Source: a virus (taxonomy: Duplodnaviria; Heunggongvirae; Uroviricota; Caudoviricetes). From it: a DNA stretch of 37,046 nucleotides. The notes beneath the pieces are model-generated. The model did not search any database, was not told where the DNA came from, and saw nothing but the letters and a program-made list of their open reading frames with translations. Of this stretch, positions 1 to 13,052 are shown piece after piece (position 1 is the stretch's first letter; every line of letters starts with the position of its first letter). The DNA is taken from IMG/VR virus record IMGVR_UViG_2896601577_000003; one strand, given 5' to 3'. A program made the translations under genes and the position numbers.

Positions 1-141
1 TTACTGCTTACACTGTAAGAACGCCGCAAACTCCGCTCCCCAGAAGCTCATCCGTATTTCGCACAGCGAACCGTGCAGCATCCAGATGATGAGGATTGCC
101 GTCACGCAGAACGTGATGGCCGTAAGCGATTTTTGCGACAT
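1..141 (-). CDS. Hok/Gef-family type I toxin (small membrane peptide), chromosomal flank of the prophage
   Basis: 46-codon reverse-strand ORF (ATG 141-139, TAA 3-1), below the ORF-track length cut-off so read by hand: MSQKSLTAITFCVTAILIIWMLHGSLCEIRMSFWGAEFAAFLQCKQ. One hydrophobic helix followed by LCEIR...EFAAFL, the pattern I recall for Hok/Gef peptides. AGGAG about 8 nt upstream. Confidence 0.5.
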   Translation of the reverse strand: MSQKSLTAITFCVTAILIIWMLHGSLCEIRMSFWGAEFAAFLQCKQ

Positions 142-492
142 AGCGCTTGCTCCTTTTTCGGGGAGGCGCTAACCTATCACTTGCTTAGGGTAGACGGTTA
201 GGGCCTCGGTTAAACAAAAATGTTTTCCGGGGCCTTTCCACATCTGGCCTTCAGGTATTCCCTCCGACCATCAGCCGAAAGGCACCCGCGCGTAATCTAT
301 CGCTTTTTTGTTACTCCGGCAATTCTGCTCGTTAATTCTGAGGTAAGGGCAAACTCATCTGATTGTTTCCTCTGTGTGAAGTTGGCAGTTCATGCCACGG
401 GTAGACTGGCCCCCTGAATCTCCAGACAACCAGTATCACTTAAATAAGTGATAGTCTTAATACTAGTTTTTAGACTAGTCATTGGAGTACAG

Positions 493-854
493 ATGATTGA
501 TGTCTTAGGGCCGGAGAAACGCAGACGGCGTACCACACAGGAAAAGATCGCAATTGTTCAGCAGAGCTTTGAACCGGGGATGACGGTCTCCCTCGTTGCC
601 CGGCAACATGGTGTAGCAGCCAGTTATTTCTCTGGCGTAAGCAATACCAGGAAGGAAGTCTTACTGCTGTGGCCGCCGGAGAACAGGTTGTTCCTGCCTC
701 TGAACTTGCTGCCGCCATGAAGCAGATTAAAGAACTCCAGCGCCTGCTCGGCAAGAAAACGATGGAAAATTAACTCCTCAAAGAAGCCGTTGAATATGGA
801 CGGGCAAAAAAGTGGATAGCGCACGCGCCCTTATTGCCCGGGGATGGGGAGTAA
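493..854 (+). pseudogene. insC: IS2 orfA (InsC), frame-broken
   Basis: ORF 448..720 contains [44 protein letters not shown] (InsC N-terminus) and then leaves the InsC frame near 620. An in-frame TAA follows at 771-773 (MEN*). Intact InsC should be about 121 aa ending near 854. Confidence 0.7.
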
Positions 855-1717
855 GCTTAGTCAGCCGTTGTCTCCGGGTGTCGCGTGCGCAGTTGCACGT
901 CATTCTCAGACGAACCGATGACTGGATGGATGGCCGCCGCAGTCGTCACACTGATGATACGGATGTGCTTCTCCGTATACACCATGTTATCGGAGAGCTG
1001 CCCACGTATGGTTATCGTCGGGTATGGGCGCTGCTTCGCAGACAGGCAGAACTTGATGGTATGCCTGCGATCAATGCCAAACGTGTTTACCGGATCATGC
1101 GCCAGAATGCGCTGTTGCTTGAGCGAAAACCTGCTGTACCGCCATCGAAACGGGCACATACAGGCAGAGTGGCCGTGAAAGAAAGCAATCAGCGATGGTG
1201 CTCTGACGGGTTCGAGTTCTGCTGTGATAACGGAGAGAGACTGCGTGTCACGTTCGCGCTGGACTGCTGTGATCGTGAGGCACTGCACTGGGCGGTGACT
1301 ACCGGCGGCTTCAACAGTGAAACAGTACAGGACGTCATGCTGGGAGCGGTGGAACGCCGCTTCGGCAACGATCTTCCGTCGTCTCCAGTGGAGTGGCTGA
1401 CGGATAATGGTTCATGCTACCGGGCTAATGAAACACGCCAGTTCGCCCGGATGTTGGGACTTGAACCGAAGAACACGGCGGTGCGGAGTCCGGAGAGTAA
1501 CGGAATAGCAGAGAGCTTCGTGAAAACGATAAAGCGTGACTACATCAGTATCATGCCCAAACCAGACGGGTTAACGGCAGCAAAGAACCTTGCAGAGGCG
1601 TTCGAGCATTATAACGAATGGCATCCGCATAGTGCGCTGGGTTATCGCTCGCCACGGGAATATCTGCGGCAGCGGGCTTGTAATGGGTTAAGTGATAACA
1701 GATGTCTGGAAATATAG
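812..1717 (+). CDS. insD: IS2 orfB (InsD) transposase, DDE catalytic domain
   Basis: 301-aa ORF; sequence matches IS2 InsD as I recall it (…[32 protein letters not shown]…[19 protein letters not shown]…). Confidence 0.9.
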
Positions 1718-1728
1718 GGGCAAATCCA

Positions 1729-1924
1729 ACGGGATGCCCTCTGATGAGTGAATGGGGGAGGCGTGCTTTGAAGTGAATTTGTGGAAGGCTTCCAGTGTTG
1801 AGAAACATACGCCGCATTCTAGATTGTTACACTGATAATACTTTTGTCTCACGGTGTTTGAATCATTTTCCGGACGACTGGTGCGGATACGGGCAGATGC
1901 GCCACAAAGCGGACAACGGAACAT
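1729..1924 (-). pseudogene. ogr: Ogr/Delta-family zinc-finger late-gene activator, interrupted after codon 65 by IS2 (3' remainder at 332-396)
   Basis: N-terminus MFRCPLCGASARIRTSRPENDSNTVRQKYYQCNNLECGVCF has the C-x2-C ... C-x4-C spacing of P2 Ogr. ORF 1688..1924 runs into the IS2 end (the tail [11 protein letters not shown] is IS2-encoded and recurs on ORF 33127..33366). Joining 1729 to 396 across the duplication restores an 86-codon ORF ending TAA at 334-332. Confidence 0.7.
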
Positions 1925-2059
1925 AGCGACCTCTCTTATTGTAGTGCTTGCACTATTCTAGGTTGTATTCTCTAAGATTTAAACATGACTTTCTCTATAT
2001 AATGATTTTTAGCATTAGTTAATAAACGAACGGCACTCTAAGGAGCGCCGTCAAAGATA

Positions 2060-4918
2060 TTATTCTGATGTCACTCTTTGCGAGTGAGCTATTTTTAAAT
2101 CAGCGTTTCCTTCAAATACTACATTCAACTCATAGTTAAGAGTTAGCTTGAATTTTTCTGAGTCACTTTTGATATTCTCTGAAGTGACATTTACTAACTT
2201 ATTATTATCATATTCTCTAATAATTAATTTAGTGAAGTAGTTATCCTTTACCACAAGAGAAAATGGTTGATTAACAAATGGTAAGAAGTAAACCTTACGG
2301 GTACCGGATTCAGTAGTTATGTTCATAGAGCCATCATCATTTTTTCTCATTAGTTCTCTGAGGTTGGGATTATCGAAAAGCATACGATTATATTGCTGAA
2401 AGATCTCTTTACTCATCACAAGAACCAGTTTGCCAGCCAAGTCAGCAGATGATTTTATGTGATCAATCAACATATTGAAATCTTCTATTACGGTATGTTG
2501 CGAACAGCCAGTGCTAAATAAATTTGAAAGTATTATTCTCTGGATGTCCTTGAGAATTAAGTCTGCTTGAATATCACCTTCATTGATATAAGGGATGGAT
2601 TCTATTCCTTCGGCATACGGTTCTTTATCTATCTTAATAGATATCTTATGTTTTGTGAAACAATCGCTAGCCTGCTTAAAATCAATAGATTTGAAAAGTG
2701 AAAGAGGGAGCGTTTTCTTGATGCGTTTACGAAGATGTTCTGATGTTTTACGTGCAGTGCTATCTAGTCGATGTACATCTATGGCAGCATCCTGAAGTCT
2801 CATATCAAGATCTTTCTTTAGCATGTTAATATGCTCTTGAAGCAACTTTCTTAAGTTTTCTTTTTTTGTTTGGAGATCGTCCAATGTTAAAGTCAGCTTG
2901 ATTTTAGTGTATTCGATGGAGTTACAAATTTTTGATAATACTCCAATGAGTCGTTGCTTCTCACGATATGTTATATAGTTGTTTTCTATTGCTTCTTTTA
3001 TTTCTTTTGATACGCTATCGTTCTTGTTAGAAAAAATTAATAATAGCTGAACCCATGATTGTTCCATATCAATAAATCCACAGTCAAAAACATTACTGTA
3101 AACTCTGCCCATCACCATGTCTGTTTTATCATAGTCACGTAAACGCCTTGCTAAACTATTCATCCACCCATTGTGCTCCATATTTTCAGACCATGTCCAC
3201 AGGCAGATTCTAATTAATATCTTGATTAGTTGGCTTGCATTATCAATTTCTTCAGTGGGAGTTTCATATCCACCGGTTTGGTCAATAAGTTTACCCTCTA
3301 AAATAAGTTTAATGTAATGTGTCATTAGTTTGTCAGAAGTATTGATTCTTGATGTCAGATAAAGACATGTGCATATACGCATGTCAGTCAACGCATTTAT
3401 GATGGCAATATTGAACCACTCTCTGTCTGAATTGAAGTTTAGTTTTTTGGATATGAAAAAAACCGGGTTAAAAAGCTGGCCTTTGTAACTGTATTTTTCT
3501 ACCGAATGGCTGTCAATATTCATTGAGTGCTGCCATCGGTTAATAAGATCGACGGCTGTATCAATAGTAGAAGGATCGCGAGTCTGTGTTGCATCAATAA
3601 TCATCGATGGAAGTTCTTGTAGTTGCGTTTTGCAAAATAATTCAAATAAATCTGAATTCTCTGTATTGCAGAAACGAAAGTTTATGCTTTCTTGATATTG
3701 CTCCCAAACAGTGGTATAGGTTCTTAATATACGATTATAACGTGAACGAAGCGAGGCATTTAAGAGTGATTGGTTGTTTCGGAACCATTCTGTCAATATT
3801 GACCATTGTGAACGAGTAATTCCCATATAGATACAAAGTTCATTGCTGATAAGATGTTTTCTATTATTGATAATACGCACTCCGCTCCAAAGACATAATT
3901 CAAAAAATCTTTCAGAAAGATTAATTTTATCCATGGAATTATTTGATATTTTATAAACTTCATCTGAAAACTCATATTGAAAACTCCGTTCAAATAATTC
4001 TGTAGTGATCAGTAAGAAGTTATTGTTGGTATTATCATCTTGAAAAAAATACAAATCGCAGAGATTATTAAAGTTATTAATTAATGCAGAGATAGCATTG
4101 TCAAAACTAATGAGATCAGAATCCCGCAGATACATATACGTATCTGCTGTTATAGCCTGCATTGTAAGACTTACGGAAAAATCTCCTCCTTTAATCGGAG
4201 CCCTATAAAAACATTGCTTAAGTATTTTTATTAATAAGCTGTCTGGTTTGATATTTTTAACGCTAAAAAGTATCTTACCCGTGGATTCTGTTTCTTTTGT
4301 ACGATTATCACCAATGACAAATGACGCAAAATGATTCTTCTTTTTTAGTTGGTAATTAATAAGATTAAGAGTAAGTTGAAAAGGACGGTGATATAAACTT
4401 AACTCATCTTCCTTAGAATAACTGCTAGCCACAGATATGTATTCTCCTTTGTAATCAGCTTGCTTGATTTCTAAATTTGAATAGTTATGTTTTTGATAGA
4501 TAGGGTATAACCTAAGCTTGGCTGAGATTTTGTTACAAATATGGGGCATTACTATTTCGAAGGCAATGTATCGCTTTATAATTATTTGCCGTTTTACATC
4601 ATCAAGAATTTCAAGACTCACGATAAAGAACCAAATAGAAAGAACTATGTTTATCAAAAGCCATAATATGCTGATTAGACAAGCTATACCATAAAGATAA
4701 CTTCCAAAGACAGTTTTAATTAGTACACTGAGAAGTATAAATCCTGATAAGAAAAGCCCGCTGAGTCCAGCAAGCATGAATCCTGAGTAACGCTGATAAG
4801 CAGTTTGGGCTATTTTTCTATCTGCCTTTTTTTGGAATAAGATACTTACTAAACCTATAACAAGGGGTATACAATACCAATAATTGTCAATTGGCCACTT
4901 AAAATGGTTGTTTGCCAT
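2060..4918 (-). CDS. Hypothetical 952-aa membrane-anchored protein, unknown family (cargo gene in AT-rich island)
   Basis: Uninterrupted 2859-nt ORF in visibly AT-rich DNA. The first ~110 aa contain 3-4 hydrophobic helices (CIPLVIGLVSILF; FMLAGLSGLFLSGFILLSVLI; YLYGIACLISILWLLINIVLSIWFFIVSL). The remaining ~840 aa are Lys/Asn/Ile-rich with a coiled-coil-like stretch (…LTLTLDDLQTKKENLRKLLQEHINMLKKDLDMRLQD…). I found no Walker A, PD-(D/E)xK, HEPN or kinase motif by eye. Confidence 0.6.
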   Translation of the reverse strand: MANNHFKWPIDNYWYCIPLVIGLVSILFQKKADRKIAQTAYQRYSGFMLAGLSGLFLSGFILLSVLIKTVFGSYLYGIACLISILWLLINIVLSIWFFIVSLEILDDVKRQIIIKRYIAFEIVMPHICNKISAKLRLYPIYQKHNYSNLEIKQADYKGEYISVASSYSKEDELSLYHRPFQLTLNLINYQLKKKNHFASFVIGDNRTKETESTGKILFSVKNIKPDSLLIKILKQCFYRAPIKGGDFSVSLTMQAITADTYMYLRDSDLISFDNAISALINNFNNLCDLYFFQDDNTNNNFLLITTELFERSFQYEFSDEVYKISNNSMDKINLSERFFELCLWSGVRIINNRKHLISNELCIYMGITRSQWSILTEWFRNNQSLLNASLRSRYNRILRTYTTVWEQYQESINFRFCNTENSDLFELFCKTQLQELPSMIIDATQTRDPSTIDTAVDLINRWQHSMNIDSHSVEKYSYKGQLFNPVFFISKKLNFNSDREWFNIAIINALTDMRICTCLYLTSRINTSDKLMTHYIKLILEGKLIDQTGGYETPTEEIDNASQLIKILIRICLWTWSENMEHNGWMNSLARRLRDYDKTDMVMGRVYSNVFDCGFIDMEQSWVQLLLIFSNKNDSVSKEIKEAIENNYITYREKQRLIGVLSKICNSIEYTKIKLTLTLDDLQTKKENLRKLLQEHINMLKKDLDMRLQDAAIDVHRLDSTARKTSEHLRKRIKKTLPLSLFKSIDFKQASDCFTKHKISIKIDKEPYAEGIESIPYINEGDIQADLILKDIQRIILSNLFSTGCSQHTVIEDFNMLIDHIKSSADLAGKLVLVMSKEIFQQYNRMLFDNPNLRELMRKNDDGSMNITTESGTRKVYFLPFVNQPFSLVVKDNYFTKLIIREYDNNKLVNVTSENIKSDSEKFKLTLNYELNVVFEGNADLKIAHSQRVTSE

Positions 4919-5178
4919 TCGGTTAATGAATGCCTAAACGGGAAATAATGTAAAAGATTATTTTTTATAAATAATTCGTTTAAATATCCAACATAAAGTA
5001 GTACAAATGAAAAAGCTGATATGCAAAGTACTGATTTAACCGGTGAGGATGTTAATCTTATGATGTTTTTTTCAATAAAATTCCATTTTAAATTCGAATA
5101 AAATGGATTTTTAACCATTTTATTACGAACATAGTTCTTTGCTAAAATCTCTGTTGCACTTAAAAATTGTCCAATCAT
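4855..5178 (-). CDS. Small hypothetical membrane ORF (107 aa), either a separate gene or the frame-shifted N-terminus of the 952-aa gene
   Basis: ORF overlaps the 5' end of the large ORF by 64 nt in another frame. Contains a hydrophobic helix (VLCISAFSFVLLYVGYL). Same AT-rich composition. Homopolymers GGGG/AAAA lie in the overlap. Confidence 0.35.
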   Translation of the reverse strand: MIGQFLSATEILAKNYVRNKMVKNPFYSNLKWNFIEKNIIRLTSSPVKSVLCISAFSFVLLYVGYLNELFIKNNLLHYFPFRHSLTEWQTTILSGQLTIIGIVYPLL

Positions 5179-5426
5179 GAATTACTCTTCTATAAAGTGT
5201 GGGTCTACTAACTAAACTGGAACTTTTACTATTGAGTCATATTCCCTTGGACGGGATGGACTGTGAAGATTATACTTGACTTCCTCTGTCATGTGGGAAA
5301 AACATCCGTATTATTGTTAGCATCTGGTTGATGCCCCAACCTCTGACATCTAGTGGGCTGATACATTATCTTTTGTTCTTACTGTCAGTGTAGAAGCACA
5401 TCTCAAAAATAATATTTTTAAGAGAT

Positions 5427-6534
5427 TTATTCTGTTTCTGCTATCCATTCCGGGATTTTTGCTTCAAGTTCAAGCTGCGTGGTAAAGCCGCTGTTATCAA
5501 TGGTGTGCTCGGCTTTTGCAATAATCCAGTCCTGATAATCAATCTCGCTTTTAAAGCCTGTCACTGTGCCATGCATTTCGGGATAGAGTTCTGCACGACC
5601 ACGCGCCAGCGTGATGGAGAATGATGCGGCTCCGCGTTGTAGCTGCTGCCACTTTGCCGCCGCTGCGCGTCTTGCTGCCTGCTCGTTCTGATAAGTCTTG
5701 CGTAACACAAACACGTTGCCTTCCGCACCTTCCATATAGTCGCCTTCCCGACTGCTACTTTTCTCCTTTTTGGGTTTTGGCGGTTTGCGGCGTTTCACGC
5801 TGACTTTTTTCTTTTTCCCGTAATTAAGATCAAGCCAGTAGGCGCGTACCCCCGTATACGCCTCGCGGTCAGCAATGCGGAACTGATGGCGATCGCCGCT
5901 GCTGCGTGTAATGGCGAACGAGGGCAACGGCTGCCCCTGTGCGTTCACGCCACCACCTGGCATGATGAATAACAGATTGCCGCTTTTTACCGTGGCGATT
6001 GCTCCCAGCATTTCCGCCATGCGCGTAAGAAAGGACATGTCGCTTTCTTCGGTCTGGTCGGCGTGGTCGATTTCGATATCCATCAGCATTTCGCTGATTT
6101 GCGGTTTCAGACCGTATCGATGAGCGATGGCGGATACCACACGCTCAACGGTCACATCATGCCAGGACACCTCACGTTTAACGTTAAATTCATCCCGAAA
6201 ATCTGCGCTTCTGGCTGAAACAGTCAGCCTGTCCGGCGGTCCTTCGTGAGCGATTTCATCAACAATGTAAGTGCCTTTTTCTGTCAGCGGTTCCCCTTTC
6301 CAGCCAATGAGAACCGTCAGACGCGGCCCCGTGGCGGTAGCTGCAACTGACCATCCGCATCATCCAGCGTGATGGTGAGCTGGTCCGCCTCAAATCCCCG
6401 GTTGTCGGTCAGTTACAGGCTCATCAGGCGCTCCGCCACGCCTGACAGCGTTTTACCCTCCGAGAGAATATCAAAATCCGGCATTTTCACGGGGGCCGTG
6501 CCCTGACTGAGCAATTGCATGGTGGTGTCGGTCA
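5427..6534 (-). pseudogene. D: P2 gpD-like tail protein; C-terminal 247 codons intact, N-terminal third frame-broken
   Basis: ORF 5427..6170 matches the P2 D C-terminal region as recalled (…ATVKSGNLLFI…ITRSSGDRHQFRIADREAYTGV…REGDYMEGAEGNVF…SGFTTQLELE…). ATG at 6534-6532 gives MTDTTMQLLSQGTAPVKMPDFDILSEGKTLSGVAERLMSL, then an in-frame TAA and frame changes before 6170. Confidence 0.8.
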
Positions 6535-6692
6535 TCTACTCCCTCCCTGTGCGGCATGGTCGCATGTGCGTGCGGAGGGGGTTACTGCTTTTTGTTGTCG
6601 CCGTGGCGGGAGAACGGCGCAGGGGTGAGATTACGCGCGTGGTGGGTGATGATTGTTGCTGAATCATTTAACGGATACAAGGGGCTGAAGCT

Positions 6693-7877
6693 ATGAGTGA
6701 AACTCGTTTTCATGGTGCCCGTGTTACGGAGAATACCGACCTGGTAACAGCGATTAACGATGTTGATTCCAGCGTTATCGGTATCGTGGCAACGGCGGAT
6801 GATGCGGACGCGAAGCTGTTCCCGCTGAACAAGCCCACACTGCTGACCCGCGTCAATGACGTGCTGGGAAAATGCGGGACAACGGGGACGCTTTATCGTG
6901 CGCTTAAGGCCATCGCAGACCAGGTGAGCACAAAGGTGATCGTCGTTCGCGTGGCTGAACACAAAGAAGAAGACGGAAAGACGCAGGATCAACTGGTTAT
7001 CGGTGGTTCTGAGGATGACGGCAGCTATACGGGGATGTATGCGCTGCTTGTTGCAGAGCAGGATGAAAGCATCGGATACCGTCCGCGTATTCTGGCCGCG
7101 CCGGAGCTGGACACGGAGGCGGTAACAAAATCCCTGTGCGTGATTGCAGATAAACTGCGCGCGTTTGTGTATGCCTCATGTCATGGCTGTAACACGATGG
7201 CCGAGGCAATTACCTACCGCCAGAAATTCAACGAACGTGAGGTGATGCTCTTATGGCCGGACTTCATCGCCTACAACCCGAAAAATGGCAAAAACGAAAC
7301 GTTCCCCGCGCCTGCCTATGCGTGCGGCCTTCGTGCGTACATTGACCATGAACAGGGATGGCACAAATCGCTGTCCAACGTTCCGGTTAAAAATGTGCTG
7401 GGGATGTCGAGGCATGTGTTCTGGTCGTTGCAGGCCGAAGACAGCGATGCCAACAGCCTCAACAACAAAGAAATCACGACCATTATTCGTCGCAACGGGG
7501 TCCGCTTCTGGGGTAACCGCACACCGGAAACGAACGCCTACATCTTTGAGGTGTATACCCGAACCGCACAGGTGCTGGCTGATTCAATTGCGGAAGCGCA
7601 GTTTGAAACCATCGACAGTCCACTGACGCCTGCGAATGTGAAGGATGTTATCAGTGCCATCAGGGCAAAACTGGATTCACTGGTGACTGCCGGGAAACTG
7701 ATTGGCGCGGAGTGCTGGTATGACGTGGTGGATAACAGCACCACGGATTTACGTCAGGGACGTGTGCGTATTCGCTACAAATATACGCCCGTTCCGCCAC
7801 TGGAAGACATGGAGCTTTACCAGACGTTTACTGATGAATACTTTGAACCCGCATTTGCGGTGCTGGGAGGTGCCTGA
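6693..7877 (+). CDS. FI: Contractile tail sheath protein (P2 FI-like)
   Basis: 394 aa; motifs …FPLNKP…RILA…LRAF…REVMLLWPDF…EQGWHKSLSNV…RFWGNRT…TRTAQV…YTPVPPLE… match the P2 FI sheath family. AAGGGG RBS upstream. Confidence 0.9.
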   Translation: MSETRFHGARVTENTDLVTAINDVDSSVIGIVATADDADAKLFPLNKPTLLTRVNDVLGKCGTTGTLYRALKAIADQVSTKVIVVRVAEHKEEDGKTQDQLVIGGSEDDGSYTGMYALLVAEQDESIGYRPRILAAPELDTEAVTKSLCVIADKLRAFVYASCHGCNTMAEAITYRQKFNEREVMLLWPDFIAYNPKNGKNETFPAPAYACGLRAYIDHEQGWHKSLSNVPVKNVLGMSRHVFWSLQAEDSDANSLNNKEITTIIRRNGVRFWGNRTPETNAYIFEVYTRTAQVLADSIAEAQFETIDSPLTPANVKDVISAIRAKLDSLVTAGKLIGAECWYDVVDNSTTDLRQGRVRIRYKYTPVPPLEDMELYQTFTDEYFEPAFAVLGGA

Positions 7878-8353
7878 TGGCTGTGCCAAAACATCTTCGC
7901 TTTTTTACGCTGTTTGTGGATGGTGAAAACGAAGTGGGTAATGTGACGTCCGTCACTCTGCCTAAGCTGACGCGCAAAACCGACAGCTACCGGGGTGGTG
8001 GCATGATGGGTGCGGTAAGTATTGATCTCGGTCTGGACGACTCCGCGCTTGATGCGAGCTTTGTCATGGGGGCGCAGTTCGTGAGCTGTTCCTTAAGTAT
8101 GGCGGCACGATTGACGGCACGCTGCTGCGTTTTGCGGGTGAATACTACACCGATGCAGAAAGCGACCTGTATGAAGTCGAAATGCGCGGACGTGTGACGG
8201 AAATTGATATGGGGGAAGCCAAACAGGGCGAAGCCACATCACACACTTACGCCATTAAAACACCTACTACAAGCTGAGTGTTAACGATCGCCCGTTGTGG
8301 GAGATTGACCTGCTGAACTTCATTTACCGGAAGGACGGGGTAATGACTCCAAC

Positions 8354-8731
8354 TTATTGATAGTGTTTTATGTTCAGATAATGCCCGATGACTTTGTCAT
8401 GCAGCTCCACCGATTTTGAGAACGACAGCGACTTCCGTCCCAGCCGTGCCAGGTGCTGCCTCAGATTCAGGTTATGCCGCTCAATTCGCTGCGTATATCG
8501 CTTGCTGATTACGTGCAGCTTTCCCTTCAGGCGGGATTCATACAGTGGCCAGCCATCCGTCATCCATATCACCACGTCAAAGGGTGACAGCAAGCTCATA
8601 AGACGCCCCTGCGTCGCCATAGTGCGTTCACCGAATACGTGCGCAACAACCGTCTTCCGGAGCCTGTCATACGCGTAAAACAGCCAGCGCTGGCGCGATT
8701 TAGCCCCGACGTATCCCCACTGTTCGTCCAT
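8354..8731 (-). CDS. insB: IS1 InsB (expressed as InsAB' by -1 frameshift)
   Basis: 125-aa [43 protein letters not shown]… matches IS1 InsB. Confidence 0.9.
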
Positions 8732-8775
8732 TTCCGCGCAGACGATGACGTCACTGCCCGGCTGTATGCGCGAGG

Positions 8776-9051
8776 TTACCGACTGCGGCCTGAGTTTTTT
8801 AAGTGACGTAAAATCGTGTTGAGGCTAACGCCCATAATGCGTGCAGTTGCCCGGCATCCAACGCCATTCATGGCCATATCAATAATTTTCTGGTGCGTAC
8901 CGGGTTGAGAAGCGGTGTAAGTGAACTGCAGTTGCCATGTTTTACGGCAGTGAGAGCAGAGATAGCGCTGATGTCCGGCAGTGCTTTTGCCGTTACGCAC
9001 CACCCCGTCAGTAGCTGAACAGGAGGGACAGCTGATAGAAACAGAAGCCAC
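8776..9051 (-). CDS. insA: IS1 InsA
   Basis: 91 aa [46 protein letters not shown]… matches IS1 InsA. Confidence 0.9.
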
Positions 9052-9219
9052 TGGAGCACCTCAAAAACACCATCATACACTAAATCAGTAAGTTGGCAGC
9101 ATCACCGAAGGACGGCAAGGACATTGTGCCCGATCGCATCCGTTCCGCGCTTGGGCTTGGCTGATAAGTAATATGCTGGCGGCGCAGTGCGTCGCCTCTG
9201 ACTGAAAAGGAGACAACAG

Positions 9220-9594
9220 ATGAAAGACATCGATACTGAAACCCGGAATAACACCGTGGCGGATAATGTGACGGCAGTTGAGGATATGGCTGTCGAACGT
9301 GGCGTAAAACTGACCCGACCAATTGAGCGTGGTGGCGAAAAAATCACGTATGTGGAGATCACCGGGGCTATTGAGCAGGCTGGATCCCTGCGTGGTCTGT
9401 CGCTGTCTGATGTGCTGAATCTGAAAGCGGATACCATGTTCACGCTGTTGCCTCGCGTGACCTCGCCACGACTGGATGAAGTGATGATTAAAAAAATGTC
9501 GTCACGCGATTTTATTCAGTTGTGCGCTGTGGCTGTAAATTTTATGAGCGAGCCAGACTCTGGCGCGAAGAGCGTGCAGGAGACGGCAGCGTAA
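9220..9594 (+). CDS. E: Tail assembly chaperone (P2 gpE-like)
   Basis: 124-aa ORF between the tube and tape-measure genes. A downstream ORF in the -1 frame (open from 9492 to 9758) overlaps its 3' end, the conserved chaperone frameshift arrangement. Confidence 0.8.
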   Translation: MKDIDTETRNNTVADNVTAVEDMAVERGVKLTRPIERGGEKITYVEITGAIEQAGSLRGLSLSDVLNLKADTMFTLLPRVTSPRLDEVMIKKMSSRDFIQLCAVAVNFMSEPDSGAKSVQETAA

Positions 9595-9758
9595 TCACCC
9601 TGGTGTGCTTTGAGCACATCGAAGATCTGGTGGCGGATATTGCCGCCATTTTTAACTGGTCGCCCGCCGAAATCTTCATGATGACGCCCTGCGAAGTGGT
9701 TAGCTGGCGTGAGCGAGCGGCACTTCGTAGCGGGAATGCAGACAATGAAGACTCTTGA
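9492..9758 (+). CDS. E' extension reached by programmed -1 frameshift (E+E' fusion)
   Basis: -1 frame is open from 9492. A run of seven A (9490-9496, …ATT AAA AAA ATG… in the E frame) lies exactly where the two frames overlap. Confidence 0.55.
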   Translation, partial: KNVVTRFYSVVRCGCKFYERARLWREERAGDGSVITLVCFEHIEDLVADIAAIFNWSPAEIFMMTPCEVVSWRERAALRSGNADNEDS

Positions 9759-12551
9759 TATCCGGGTCGCTTTCAGCGCCGTTGACAGGCTGACCCGGCC
9801 TGCCGAAAACGCCCGCCGCCTGATGGGGCAGTTTGGTGACTCCATCCAGCGAACGCAGGGGGCGATCAAAAATCTCGAGCGTCAGGCGCGATCATTTGAG
9901 CGCGCCCGTGACGCTGTCAGTAAAGCGGATGCGGGCATCGTGAAAGCACGACGCCAGCTTAACGCCCTTAATCAGTTACAACGCACGGGTACAGTGCTCA
10001 GCGAAAAACAACAAAAGCTGATGCAGCAGTTAAGCACCCGGCTTGAACGCCTGAATGAATCGCGCACACGGGAAATTCAGAAAATGCGGGAGCTTGGCGG
10101 AGAGCTGAAACGCCACGGCATTTCCCTGACAGGCAGCGATAACACCATCCAGCAGGCCATCAGACGCACCGAACAGTACAACAACCAGCTTGAACGCGAA
10201 CGGCAGGCGCTTGCGCGTGTAACACGGGCGCGTGAGCGGTATTCGCGCGCGCAGGAAACAGCGGGAAAACTGAAAACAGGTGGTGCGCTGGCAATTGGTG
10301 CGGCAGCGGCGGGCGGCTATGCTGCCGGGCGTTTTTTGCAGCCTGCGATCGGGTTCGGCAAAGAGATGTTCCGCGTTCAGGCACTGACGCGAATCGACCA
10401 GAACAGCCCGCAGTTTAAGGCGCTGCGTGAGCAGGCGTTAAAACTTGGCTCTGAAACGCAGTTCACCGCAGGCGATGCCGCCAGTGGACAGGCATTTCTT
10501 GCAATGGCTGGCTTTACACCACAGGCCATTCAGGCTGCGCTCCCTGGCGTACTGAGCATGGCAACGGCTGGCGGTATGGACCTCGGTGAGACGGCGGATA
10601 TTGGCTCAAATATTCTGACGCAGTTCGGTCTTTCTGCTGACCAGATGGACCGGGTCGGCGACACACTCACCGCAGCGTTTACCCGTACCAACACTGACCT
10701 TCGCGCACTGGGTGAAACCATGAAATATGCAGGTCCGGTGGCGGGTAAGCTGGGAATATCTCTGGAGCAGGCCGCAGCGATGGCGGGCGTGCTGGCGAAT
10801 ATGGGTATCAGGGGGAGTGATGCTGGTACGGCAATGCGTGCCAGCCTGGCTCGTCTGGCATCACCGCCAAAGGCGGCAGCAGAGGCGCTGAAAGAGCTTG
10901 GCGTGTCTGTCTCGGATGCCGGGGCAAAATGCGCCCGATGGAGGATGTGCTGGCTGACCTTTATAAAGCTACCCGCAAATACGGGGAAGTTGACCGGGTA
11001 TCGTTCTTTAAGGACATTGCCGGAGAAGAGGCTTTCACATCATTTATGGCCCTCGTTGATGCGGCAGGTGACGGCTCCTTACCCAAACTGAGAAAAGAAC
11101 TTGAAGGCGCGCGCGGTGAGGCTGAACGCACGGCAAAGGTTATGGCCAACAACCTTGACGGCGATCTGAAATCACTCAGCAGTGCATGGGAAGGGTTGCG
11201 CATCCGCATTGCAGATCTGATTGACGGTCCGCTGCGTTCTGTCACGCAGTGGCTCACGCGTGTGGTATCAAAGGTGACGGCGCTGGCGCAGGCCCATCCC
11301 GCACTGACGCGCCAGCTACTGATTGCAGGCGGTGCATTGCTGGCAATGACTGCAACGGTTGGCTCGTTGTCGCTGGCTATTGGTGTGCTTGCTGGCCCGC
11401 TGGCAAAACTGCGTCTTGGTTTTTCCCTCCTGACCGGATCAATGAATGCTGTCAGGGTTCTGCCAGCACTATGGGGAATGGTGACGGGTTCCGTTTCTTT
11501 ACTGGGAGGCGCTATCGGGGCGTTGTTCAGTCCGGTTGGTCTTATCGTGGCTGCGCTTGCCGGAGCTGCCGTTCTTATCTGGAAATACTGGGATCCCATC
11601 AGGGCATTTTTTGCCGGGGTGTTCAGCGGGATTATGGAAAGGCTGACCCCGTTGCGCGAAACATTTGAACGGTTTGGTCCTGTTTTTGACGCAATCGGGA
11701 GTGGGATCAGCCAGGTGTTTAACTGGTTTAAATCGCTGCTGTCACCGATGGAGTCCAGCAAGGAAACTCTGGATAAATGTACCAGTGCTGGCGAGATATT
11801 CGGTAACGTTCTTGGCGGTGCGTTACAACTTGTTCTGACACCTGCAAAAATGTTGCTGGATACGCTGGCGTGGATACTTGAAAAGCTTGGTGTGCTTCCG
11901 GATGAAGCGGAAAGGGCGCGCAAGAAAATCGAAGACGCACAGCGTGCGGCCATTCTTCAGGACAAGGTTGCCTTGCTTCAGGGGGACCTGGCGAAAATCA
12001 ATCCGCCGAAGCCTGTGGAAAATGGCAATGGCACCGGAGGTGATAACCCCAAAGACAATAAACCGCTCACAGACAGCAATACCGGTACGCTGCGCAGACT
12101 CAGCAAAATTGCTGATAACACAGGTAAGCTGGTTGAGGAGACGAAAAAACGCATTGGCCCCGGCGATATTGTCTTTAAAAACCTGCCCCGAGCACTTGCT
12201 GTTCGTGGGGAGTGGCAGGAGCGGAAGATTGCGCAGGTCAGTAAGCCTGCCCCCGCAATTAATATCACACCCGTGGTTCCGGCTCCGCTGCCTCCGGCGC
12301 TGGTCCCTGTTGTTGCGGCCAGCTCCCGCCCGGTGGCGGAGGCTATACGATCTCCAGTGGCATCAGTTCCTGTAACTTCCCGTAACCGGGAGCCTGTTGC
12401 CTCCGGATTTGGTGGTGAAATTCATGTTCATCTGCATAACGTTGTTACGCAGAATCCCCGCGAACTGGCGAAACTGGTCGGTGAAATGGTCAGGGCAGAA
12501 ATGGAACGGCGCGCCCGTGCCGGGCGTGGCTGTTTTTACGATAAAGATTGA
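9736..12551 (+). pseudogene. T: Tail tape-measure protein (P2 gpT-like), split into two overlapping ORFs by a frame break
   Basis: ORFs 9709..11091 and 10929..12551 together give an ~810-aa Ala/Gly-rich protein with a hydrophobic central segment, typical of tape-measure proteins. The frames switch between about 10900 and 11090. Confidence 0.85.
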
Positions 12552-12557
12552 GGAGTC

Positions 12558-13052
12558 ATGGCCATGATGATGATCTACGGCATGTTTGTTTTTGAGCTGC
12601 GCACGCTGCCGCATCAGCAGTTACAGCAAAACAAAAGCTGGCGGCATGTGAAAAATGAACGCGTTAACCGTTCAGCAAGCTGGCAGTATATCGGTGCAGG
12701 TGATGATCGCATCGTTCTTTCTGGTGTGCTTTATCCTGAAATTACAGGTGGCGAAGTGTCGCTGTCGCTGCTGACCACGCAGGCGTATACAGGACGACCC
12801 TGGCCTTTGATTGATGGCGTCGGGCAGATTTACGGCATGTATGTCCTGACTGAAACGAATACGACCCGCTCCGAGTTTGATCGCTACGGTAAGGCGAAAA
12901 AGATAGAATTTTCACTGACTCTTGAACGCTGTGATGAGGATTTGCGGGAGCGCCTGCAATCCTCATCGTTCAGTGATATGCTGTCCGGCTTCAAAGATAA
13001 GGTGACATCATCTCTTAACAGCGCGGCCAGTTCAGTTAAAGGGCTGTTCTGA
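12558..13052 (+). CDS. U: Tail protein (P2 gpU-like)
   Basis: 164-aa ORF immediately after the tape-measure gene; sequence is consistent with the P2 gpU family as recalled. Confidence 0.8.
   Translation: MAMMMIYGMFVFELRTLPHQQLQQNKSWRHVKNERVNRSASWQYIGAGDDRIVLSGVLYPEITGGEVSLSLLTTQAYTGRPWPLIDGVGQIYGMYVLTETNTTRSEFDRYGKAKKIEFSLTLERCDEDLRERLQSSSFSDMLSGFKDKVTSSLNSAASSVKGLF

Follow-up and report, generated by a model that had tools for sequence, protein, structure and literature searches.

The stretch of DNA analysed here (the window, 37,046 nucleotides, positions counted from its first letter) contains a P2-like prophage, and between two conserved genes of this prophage, gpD and ogr, two overlapping open reading frames (ORFs) are found on the minus strand. 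The first-pass annotation, made from the letters and the ORF list, had offered two readings of this pair, namely a small membrane partner gene overlapping a large effector gene, or a single protein of about 1050 amino acids with a frame break at a homopolymer. The features of the locus, as interpreted below, are as follows.

1688..1924, minus strand: ogr (PF04606), the downstream anchor; its 3' end is cut by IS2, leaving 78 aa compared to 86 aa in E. coli relatives
2029..2052, minus strand: terminator-like hairpin directly after the stop codon; 10-pair stem with 6 GC pairs, a consensus match only
2060..5178, minus strand: the whole gene, 1039 codons plus stop after restoring one C in the C run
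2060..4918, minus strand: the large ORF, 952 aa, ATG start
2060..4863, minus strand: the 3' piece in the ancestral frame, codons 106-1039 plus stop
2063..2737, minus strand: predicted C-terminal HK97-fold (capsid/encapsulin-like) domain, residues 815-1039
4610..5043, minus strand: predicted four-helix transmembrane (TM) region, residues 46-190, with AlphaFold helices at 46-66, 85-114, 134-158 and 160-190 and a conservation peak at 101-140
4855..5178, minus strand: the 5' fragment ORF, 107 aa, ATG start (product P0121); as a piece of the whole gene, codons 1-105 (N-terminal cytoplasmic segment, TM1 and the first half of TM2) plus two out-of-frame codons and a stop
4864..4867: the frame-break site, G4 on the plus strand and C4 on the minus strand; a run of five in close relatives other than the C4 assemblies
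5427..6170, minus strand: gpD (tail protein D, PF05954), the upstream anchor, shortened in the window by a private 1-nt deletion at 6326

The geometry of the two ORFs is as originally described: the 64 nucleotides 4855-4918 are common to both in the ORF list, and the offset between their starts (5178-4918 = 260) is no multiple of 3, so that they lie in different frames. Both frames are, indeed, open over 4855-4933, the last upstream stop of the large frame being the TAG at 4936-4934. At the break, the minus strand reads GTA TAC CCC TTG TTA TAG, its CCCC corresponding to the GGGG at 4864-4867 of the plus strand. The 107-codon ORF is real coding sequence: homologues with as little as about 25% identity share it at their N-terminus. 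In its first 18 codons (4865-4918), the 952-aa ORF reads codons 88-105 of the whole gene out of frame, and this part is not ancestral coding sequence. Inspection of the minus strand upstream of the ATG at 4918 revealed no Shine-Dalgarno-like sequence, and gene callers place the start of the large ORF either at ATG 4918, giving 952 aa, or at ATG 4777, giving 905 aa. The exact 952-aa product is absent from the protein collection because the callers took the 905-aa start.

Comparison with relatives makes it nearly certain that the two ORFs are pieces of one 1039-codon gene, from which one C of a run of five is missing. In five complete E. coli genomes, 3422 bases align to 3421 query bases, and the sole indel across these 3.4 kb maps to the C run. 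The E. coli relatives are annotated with a single CDS of 3120 nt (WP_264716223 or WP_049143931); once the base is restored, the window protein has 1039 aa and shows 5 differences (99.5% identity) from WP_264716223 of E. coli VG38-53E1 and 2 differences from S. boydii ACD06715.1. The context of the run is ATACCCCCTTG in L001, L002, L033-L038 and L039-L044, and ATACCCCTTG in the window and L004-L006. Base-by-base reading shows a run of five in at least 16 close copies (match length implies the same for 3 more) and a run of four in four assemblies, with no other length seen; among close copies on viral contigs, six of the eight have the intact C5. Hence the conjecture of a single-base break at a short homopolymer was correct for the GGGG run at 4864-4867, where relatives have one base more, while the AAAA run that had also been suspected is not involved. 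With C4 in place of C5, the frame shifts at codon 105/106 and runs into a stop two codons on, and the remainder shows up as a second, overlapping ORF.

The same conclusion follows from the whole homologue family. Relatives down to about 22% identity are single ORFs of 1030-1130 aa, and the few that are broken break elsewhere. Specifically, the search yielded 183 homologues, the full-length ones being 1027-1079 aa long and covering 95-100% of the query, and 496 cluster representatives, the full-length ones matching profile positions 1-1050 in one stretch; a single ORF of 1032-1094 aa is present at 20 of 26 loci, and the breaks at the remaining 6 lie at different positions. A homologue is present in 377 plasmid records; in 300 of these, the match spans 80% or more of the query, and each of the three plasmid records inspected has one CDS. 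The family, which comprises about 500 clusters at 50% identity, lacks annotation. The choice between a single protein and two genes had been left to homologous loci, and these encode one fused ORF, with none split at codon ~105. Furthermore, the break falls in the middle of TM2, within the motif GGQLTIIGIVYP[LM]V[VI]GL[VI]S, the most conserved stretch of the family, and therefore neither piece keeps this motif intact. Q96, L97, T98, I100, G101, V103, Y104, P105, V107, G109, L110, S112, F115, Q116 and K118 are invariant columns around the break; in the family alignment, the invariant blocks are Q96-K118 and Q129-L142, and block conservation is 0.88-0.92 at residues 101-140, compared to about 0.5-0.6 elsewhere. 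No evidence against the single-gene reading was found.

A true two-gene module, in which a gene for a 107-aa membrane partner overlaps and is translationally coupled to the gene for a 952-aa protein, has to be judged very improbable against this background. The two ORFs overlap and each has an ATG start, as is known from operons; however, no relative shows this layout, no complete homologous locus examined is split at this point, and the split lies within an invariant TM helix, its position cutting the most conserved motif. Moreover, the large ORF would begin with 18 conserved codons read out of frame, from an ATG that lacks a Shine-Dalgarno-like sequence and on which the callers disagree. A regulatory break, be it programmed -1 ribosomal frameshifting or phase variation by a homopolymer switch, appears just as implausible. 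Judging from the sequence, the wild-type VYPLVIG would be regained exactly if tRNA-Pro slipped by -1 on C-CCC; yet UAC CCC UUG does not contain an X XXY YYZ heptamer, and in the relatives the protein is encoded in one frame. As for phase variation, phase-variable loci have long homopolymers, usually of 7 or more bases, and a run of 4-5 bases is too short for efficient slipped-strand switching; among close relatives, there are no run lengths besides C5 and C4, and C4 is confined to four assemblies that show other homopolymer deletions as well.

The locus thus holds one gene, not two, whether the missing C is an error or real. Of these two options, an assembly error, that is, systematic under-calling of C/G homopolymers, is the probable one. 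The repaired allele of the lineage exists exactly (P0296 = ACD06715.1, S. boydii CDC 3083-94): C5, and with it a protein identical to this repaired allele, is found on 11 contigs of the same Shigella boydii lineage (CP001063.1, CP026762.1 and nine contigs of 5-10 kb, of which the four shown are 6.6 kb), and these contigs share the IS1 and IS2 insertions of the window wherever they reach them. C4 occurs in only four assemblies, namely CP026867.1, which does not differ from the window over 11.2 kb, CP026872.1, PTES01 and PSSS01. No SNP unites these four assemblies, and position 3176, which is G in the window and L004 and A in L005, L006 and all intact copies, splits the group. The C4 assemblies carry further 1-nt deletions, at 10925, 10815, 7995, 6581, 6495, 6326, 2594, 843 and 579, nearly all in C/G runs; these nine are absent from the other six assemblies of the lineage, and the way in which some of them are shared conflicts with the SNPs. 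By comparison, the C-run deletion at 8073 looks real because it is present in every S. boydii copy.

A real deletion would mean that an S. boydii sub-lineage lost one C of the C5, perhaps recurrently, turning the gene into a recent pseudogene. We regard this as the less likely option, although by no means a negligible one. In its favor, the four assemblies, with their different private SNPs, all have C4, whereas their other homopolymer deletions are sporadic, and CP026762.1, a long-read assembly of a neighbouring accession series, has C5; both observations count against an artefact. A real frameshift would also be unsurprising, since the prophage is evidently in decay, with IS1 in the tube gene, IS2 in ogr and the lineage-wide C-run deletion at 8073. 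Other copies of the gene are independently broken elsewhere: L045 has an A7 to A6 change, L046/P0135 a stop at aa 315 and P0125 an internal deletion, and in S. dysenteriae there are contig breaks at codon 94. The sharing of C4 by four assemblies was considered as proof of an inherited mutation and dropped, since the lineage also contains the intact allele and the homopolymer deletions are homoplasic. Against a real deletion stand, besides the eleven intact contigs, the absence of SNP support for a clade of the four, which position 3176 contradicts, and the sporadic or homoplasic character of the other deletions in the same assemblies.

Under the preferred reading of a single gene that is probably broken by an assembly error, the intact product can be considered as a whole. 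According to the AlphaFold full model (pLDDT 81), the N-terminus is cytoplasmic, and four TM helices, a helical region of about 600 residues and a C-terminal domain of the HK97 fold follow. Polar residues that are invariant abound in the TM helices, among them Q96, T98, S112, Q116, S132, N177 and S181. That both ORFs encode hydrophobic helices, as had been noted, is borne out by the Kyte-Doolittle segments of the repaired protein at 45-68, 90-117, 132-162 and 156-196; the "about five" N-terminal TM helices that had been envisaged are to be corrected, since the model shows four helices of TM length. In the predicted structures, residues 815-1039 display an E-loop hairpin, a spine helix and A and P domains, the elements that define the HK97 fold, so that this assignment appears sound at the level of the models.

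The capsid models of Pfam and PHROG do not match the protein, and when hhalign was used to compare the family profile with the P2-type capsid protein encoded in the window itself, the result was a non-significant E of 0.096 and a probability of 0.6%. Foldseek with the full model against the PDB returned nothing at E<=0.001, yielding only weak capsid and helical-repeat matches, and a profile search of PDB sequences found no match. With the intact protein, Pfam and NCBIfam gave no match at E<=1, PADLOC-DB 2.0 no family at E<=1, and PHROGs a sole, unusable match (E 0.015 over 37 residues). The term "effector" used for the large ORF in the first-pass annotation is not backed by any domain match. 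Taken together, these data indicate that the intact gene encodes an uncharacterised membrane protein of no known family, which is predicted to end in a virus-capsid-like domain.

Position and composition show the intact gene to be AT-rich cargo, a single gene acquired horizontally and inserted between gpD and ogr. The GC content is 31-36% over about 1950-5400, compared to 53-56% in the flanks, and neither DNA nor protein matches to the gene were found in 50,697 phage GenBank records; being absent from all of these, the gene is variable cargo. Location between conserved phage genes, deviant composition and lack of a match in phage records are the properties expected of the variable cargo (morons) of P2-like phages. 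A search of positions 1-9000 of the window against Rfam gave no match.

The surroundings of the homologues offer some hints as to function. Aliikangiella and Psychromonas have the gene order hsdM-hsdS-[homologue]-hsdR, and an IMG/VR contig has hsdS-[homologue]-hsdR. (Tandem ORFs of about 1090 aa in L024 and L026, which could be taken for a pair of paralogues, proved not to be one: the second ORF is hsdR.) Other homologues have a TIR protein, a KAP NTPase, RES, PDC-S02 or YhcG nucleases among their neighbours, and those on IncF plasmids lie in accessory regions beside TA/RES genes. A literature search on the protein and assembly accessions and on capsid-like defence domains found nothing relevant.

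From these surroundings, we would give even odds to a defence role of any kind, anti-phage or anti-mobile-element, for the intact protein. The variable cytoplasmic part, including the capsid-like domain, might sense or bind phage head-assembly components or self-oligomerise, and the highly conserved TM bundle might be the effector, permeabilising the membrane or tethering the target. Developed in full, this becomes a speculative scheme of an undescribed single-gene system, rather unlikely in all its particulars, in which an HK97-fold capsid mimic, together with the helical region, would recognise or co-assemble with the head proteins of an invader, or oligomerise in a capsomer-like manner, and thereby switch on a four-helix polar TM bundle that would collapse the membrane or tether and block head assembly; the family would spread on P2-like prophages, on IncF plasmids and within type I restriction-modification (R-M) operons. 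A non-defence protein, that is, a transporter (as the PGAP name has it), a factor in the maintenance of phage or plasmid, or a membrane protein of lysogenic conversion, is a serious contender with a likelihood somewhat short of one half. It would fit the ordinary metabolic neighbours at many homologue loci and the lack of a PADLOC match, and some RefSeq records bear the name "MFS transporter". This label we reject: the protein has four TM helices as opposed to twelve, and no MFS, Pfam or NCBIfam model matches it even at E<=1. The cargo site in the prophage, the IncF accessory regions beside TA/RES genes and the location between hsdS and hsdR in three loci also speak against a non-defence role.

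For the reading of the record, the implication is that the 107-aa membrane ORF and the 952-aa ORF are one disrupted gene and should not be counted as an operon of a small partner and a large effector. The assembly of the window appears to under-call C/G homopolymers, and errors of the same type leave the tape-measure gene split (10925) and gpD shortened (6326), so that what look like further pseudogenes in this record call for caution. Of greater interest than the break is the family itself with its unusual predicted build, in which four TM helices are combined with a helical region and a capsid-fold domain. This architecture, the travel on prophages and plasmids and the place in restriction-modification operons make the gene a candidate new defence gene that would be cheap to test.

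Among known systems, MFS transporters are likewise integral membrane proteins, but the cargo protein differs from them in the number of TM helices, in its soluble part of 840 residues and in matching no MFS model. As a single AT-rich gene between conserved phage genes, it resembles the P2-like accessory genes old, tin and Z/fun and the defence hotspots reported by Rousset et al. 2022 (PMC9122126), in PMC13586616 and in bioRxiv 10.1101/2024.10.15.618418. Its gpD-ogr site, however, differs from the cos-adjacent and Z/fun hotspots, and it has no homology to any validated system. The PrrC anticodon nuclease exemplifies a gene embedded in a type I R-M operon between hsdS and hsdR. Three distant homologues occupy exactly this position; unlike PrrC-like genes, the cargo gene encodes neither an ATPase nor a nuclease domain, and the window copy and most homologues are not beside R-M genes. 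Lambda RexB is a prophage-encoded membrane protein of exclusion or abortive infection. With RexB, P22 SieA (PMC10883804) and the assembly-blocking Tab (PMC10884400), the cargo protein shares the prophage-borne single gene, the membrane anchor and a conceivable link to virion assembly, but it is much larger, has another architecture and shows no sequence similarity to them. Finally, HK97-fold major capsid proteins and encapsulins have 5-12% identity to its C-terminal domain; in these proteins, the fold forms a free shell subunit, whereas here it is predicted to be the tail of a 1039-aa membrane protein encoded by a cargo gene outside the head-gene module.

The two overlapping minus-strand reading frames were described accurately in the first-pass annotation, as judged from the ORF listing and the minus-strand sequence:

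4855..5178, minus strand: ORF of 107 codons (ORF listing)
2060..4918, minus strand: ORF of 952 codons (ORF listing)

They lie in different frames and have 64 nt in common. Read on the minus strand, the small frame ends in ...GTA TAC CCC TTG TTA TAG, and the large frame opens at 4933 and has its ATG start at 4918; the plus-strand GGGG at 4864-4867, correctly named in that annotation, is the CCCC run of this sequence. Of the two readings then offered, two genes or one protein with a homopolymer frame break, the latter is borne out: one C added at 4864-4868 yields a single 1039-aa ORF, as in relatives. A megablast search with 2000-5420 as the query matched, among 5,426 complete E. coli genomes, five chromosomal copies with 98.9-99.8% identity, each of 3422 bases versus 3421 query bases, and in the two copies aligned base by base the extra C at 4864-4868 is the sole indel. 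The annotation of these E. coli genomes shows one 3120-nt CDS at the locus (WP_264716223, 'MFS transporter', or WP_049143931, 'hypothetical protein'), from whose product the repaired 1039-aa window protein differs by five substitutions.

The same organization prevails among more distant relatives. The full-length members of a set of 183 homologues measure 1027-1079 aa (query coverage 95-100%, identity down to 26%), and, of 496 representatives clustered at 50%, those of full length align to the profile without interruption from position 1 to ~1050. Homologues occur in 377 plasmid records (one CDS in each of the three inspected), in nine viral contigs and in 18 species-representative genomes, as far afield as Shewanella, Pseudoalteromonas, Psychrobacter and Desulforhopalus. 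The comparison of homologous loci for one ORF or two, as had been proposed, gave one: the gene is one ORF of 1032-1094 aa in 20 of the 26 fetched loci, the remaining six are broken at other places, and none is broken at codon ~105. Among the columns invariant in an alignment of 47 sequences are Q96, L97, T98, I100, G101, V103, Y104, P105, V107, G109, L110, S112, F115, Q116 and K118, and block conservation is highest at residues 101-140 (0.88-0.92, versus ~0.5-0.6 elsewhere). Since these columns and the conservation peak surround the site, the break at P105/L106 bisects the signature transmembrane (TM) helix of the family.

The two-gene module is thus refuted: relatives have one ORF, the split falls inside a conserved TM helix, and the 952-codon ORF starts out of frame, its codons 1-18 being conserved codons misread. 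A programmed frameshift is not indicated either, there being no slippery heptamer and one frame in relatives; a phase switch was rejected as an explanation of the overlap. Judged by sequence comparison, the overlap is a single-base homopolymer frameshift in a gene already intact in public databases and, as a finding, ordinary.

Only four recorded assemblies encode exactly the 107-aa product: CP026867.1 (identical to the window across 11.2 kb), CP026872.1, PTES01000001.1 and PSSS01000001.1. All four have four C's in the run (C4), an IS2 in ogr and an IS1 in the tail-tube gene. The allele of this lineage with the C restored (C5) yields a product that exactly matches ACD06715.1 of Shigella boydii CDC 3083-94; it is present on 11 contigs (CP001063.1, CP026762.1 and nine of 5-10 kb, at least four of these 6.6 kb long), with the same IS1 and IS2 insertions wherever the contig extends that far. 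Base-by-base comparison of the lineage copies across 6.5-11 kb found no SNP uniting the four C4 assemblies; at position 3176, the window and CP026872.1 stand on one side and the other two group with the intact copies. Other single-nucleotide deletions, almost all of them in C/G runs, occur in the C4 assemblies:

Window: 10925, 6326
PTES01: 10925, 10815, 6495, 843, 579
CP026872.1: 7995, 6581, 6495, 2594

The way in which certain of these deletions are shared conflicts with the SNPs, and all are absent from the other six assemblies compared. As the lack of a uniting SNP, the scattered deletions, the SNP conflict and the six clean assemblies form a signature of homopolymer under-calling, we infer that C4 in the window was probably introduced by assembly. 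A real, recent deletion carried by these four assemblies is the less likely alternative; in that case, as read from the sequence, the exact wild-type protein would be restored by tRNA-Pro slipping by -1 on C-CCC. Unlike the run at 4864-4867, the C6-to-C5 deletion at 8073 in the tail-tube gene, found in 10 of 10 S. boydii copies whatever their source, is distributed as a real inherited lineage indel should be and looks genuine.

The tape-measure gene (within 9709..12551, plus strand) reads as a pair of overlapping ORFs (9709..11091 and 10929..12551); at 10925, the window is one C short of the C5 run of CP026762.1 and PSSS01, a deletion of the same error type as the cargo-gene break, present in PTES01 and absent in PSSS01. 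At 6326, a private 1-nt deletion in GGGGCGCGCG, probably another assembly error, shortens gpD (5427..6170 and upstream, minus strand) to 247 aa, whereas sister assemblies encode 306 aa and E. coli RIVM_C040348 encodes 369 aa. The 3.1-kb cargo gene contains four private substitutions (2156, 3462, 3794, 4457), two of them non-synonymous (V573, E1008), versus only two in the remaining ~8 kb compared, a difference for which relaxed constraint, chance or sequencing error might account. Loss of the gene or damage to it is frequent in Shigella and E. coli, through independent disruptions: a close copy has an A7-to-A6 frameshift at codon ~36 (L045, nt 5107), the E. coli DEC6A copy a premature stop at aa 315 (L046; P0135), and a Salmonella copy an internal deletion (P0125).

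The window is a P2-like prophage adjoining hok, ihfA and pheST, with the cargo gene between gpD and ogr:

~390-1720: IS2 element, InsC-like ORF 448..720 and InsD-like ORF 812..1717
1688..1924, minus strand: ogr, cut by IS2
5427..6170, minus strand: gpD
6693..7877, plus strand: tail sheath FI
after FI: tail tube FII, interrupted by IS1
8354-9051: IS1 element, InsA/InsB ORFs, breaking FII
further along the window: tape measure, gpU, fibre, baseplate, capsid, scaffold, terminase

The element identified from its protein sequences as IS2 sits in the 3' end of ogr, leaving an Ogr of 78 aa versus 86 aa; the IS1 insertion is also found in the S. boydii copies whose contigs extend there. A Hok/Gef-family toxin ORF (1-141, minus strand) lies at the prophage/chromosome junction, adjoining ihfA-pheT in related genomes. 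The FI-FII-E-T-U tail block (6693-13052) lies on the strand opposite D-cargo-ogr (1688-6170), FI and D diverging from a short spacer, whereas in P2 FI...U, D and ogr are co-linear; since intact-looking E. coli prophages share this arrangement, it is a gene-order variant of the prophage group and not a Shigella rearrangement. GC content is 31-36% over ~1950-5400 versus 53-56% in the flanks, a terminator-like hairpin lies 3' of the cargo-gene stop codon, and GenBank phage records yielded no DNA or protein match to the gene. Low GC, its position between gpD and ogr and its absence from phage records mark it as variable prophage cargo.

The intact protein matched nothing in Pfam, PADLOC, NCBIfam, PHROGs or PDB sequences, and the name 'MFS transporter' is unsupported. 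An AlphaFold model built with the 47-sequence alignment (pLDDT 81, pTM 0.66) comprises, in order:

N-terminal cytoplasmic segment
46-66, 85-114, 134-158, 160-190: TM helices
stalk helix
~236-330: small alpha/beta insert
~336-820: long helical region
C-terminal alpha/beta domain

Hydropathy and the model agree on four TM helices, not the "about five" first suggested for the fused protein. Some members of ~977 aa (P0166, P0170) start just before TM2 (MTWQG..GGQLTII..) and are without TM1, either as a natural variant with three TM helices or because their starts were mis-called. The family is uncharacterised and architecturally unusual and, by sequence, falls outside every known defence family.

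At three loci, homologues with ~24-25% identity are embedded between hsdS and hsdR of type I restriction-modification operons, their start and stop codons abutting or overlapping the adjacent genes:

L024, 5944-12449
L026, 5992-12635
L047, 3523-9289

These belong to Aliikangiella marina, Psychromonas aquatilis and an IMG/VR contig. Elsewhere, neighbours include a CAP12/Pycsar-type TIR protein, a KAP NTPase, a RES toxin, toxin-antitoxin pairs, PDC-S02 candidates and YhcG nucleases; many homologues are located in IncF plasmid accessory regions, and at other loci the neighbours are ordinary genes. The genomic neighbours point towards defence, not conclusively, and an anti-phage or anti-mobile-element role has, in our estimate, about an even chance of being correct. 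It is a speculative and rather improbable extension that the capsid-fold C-terminal domain would bind or co-assemble with phage head components, or oligomerise like a capsomer, and thereby gate the TM bundle. As a subject for experiments, the family is a reasonable choice. A known counterpart exists for the C-terminal fold alone. The TM bundle is near-invariant and in places polar, with a much more variable cytoplasmic part attached, a pattern that resembles defence proteins in which a conserved effector is joined to a diversifying sensor.
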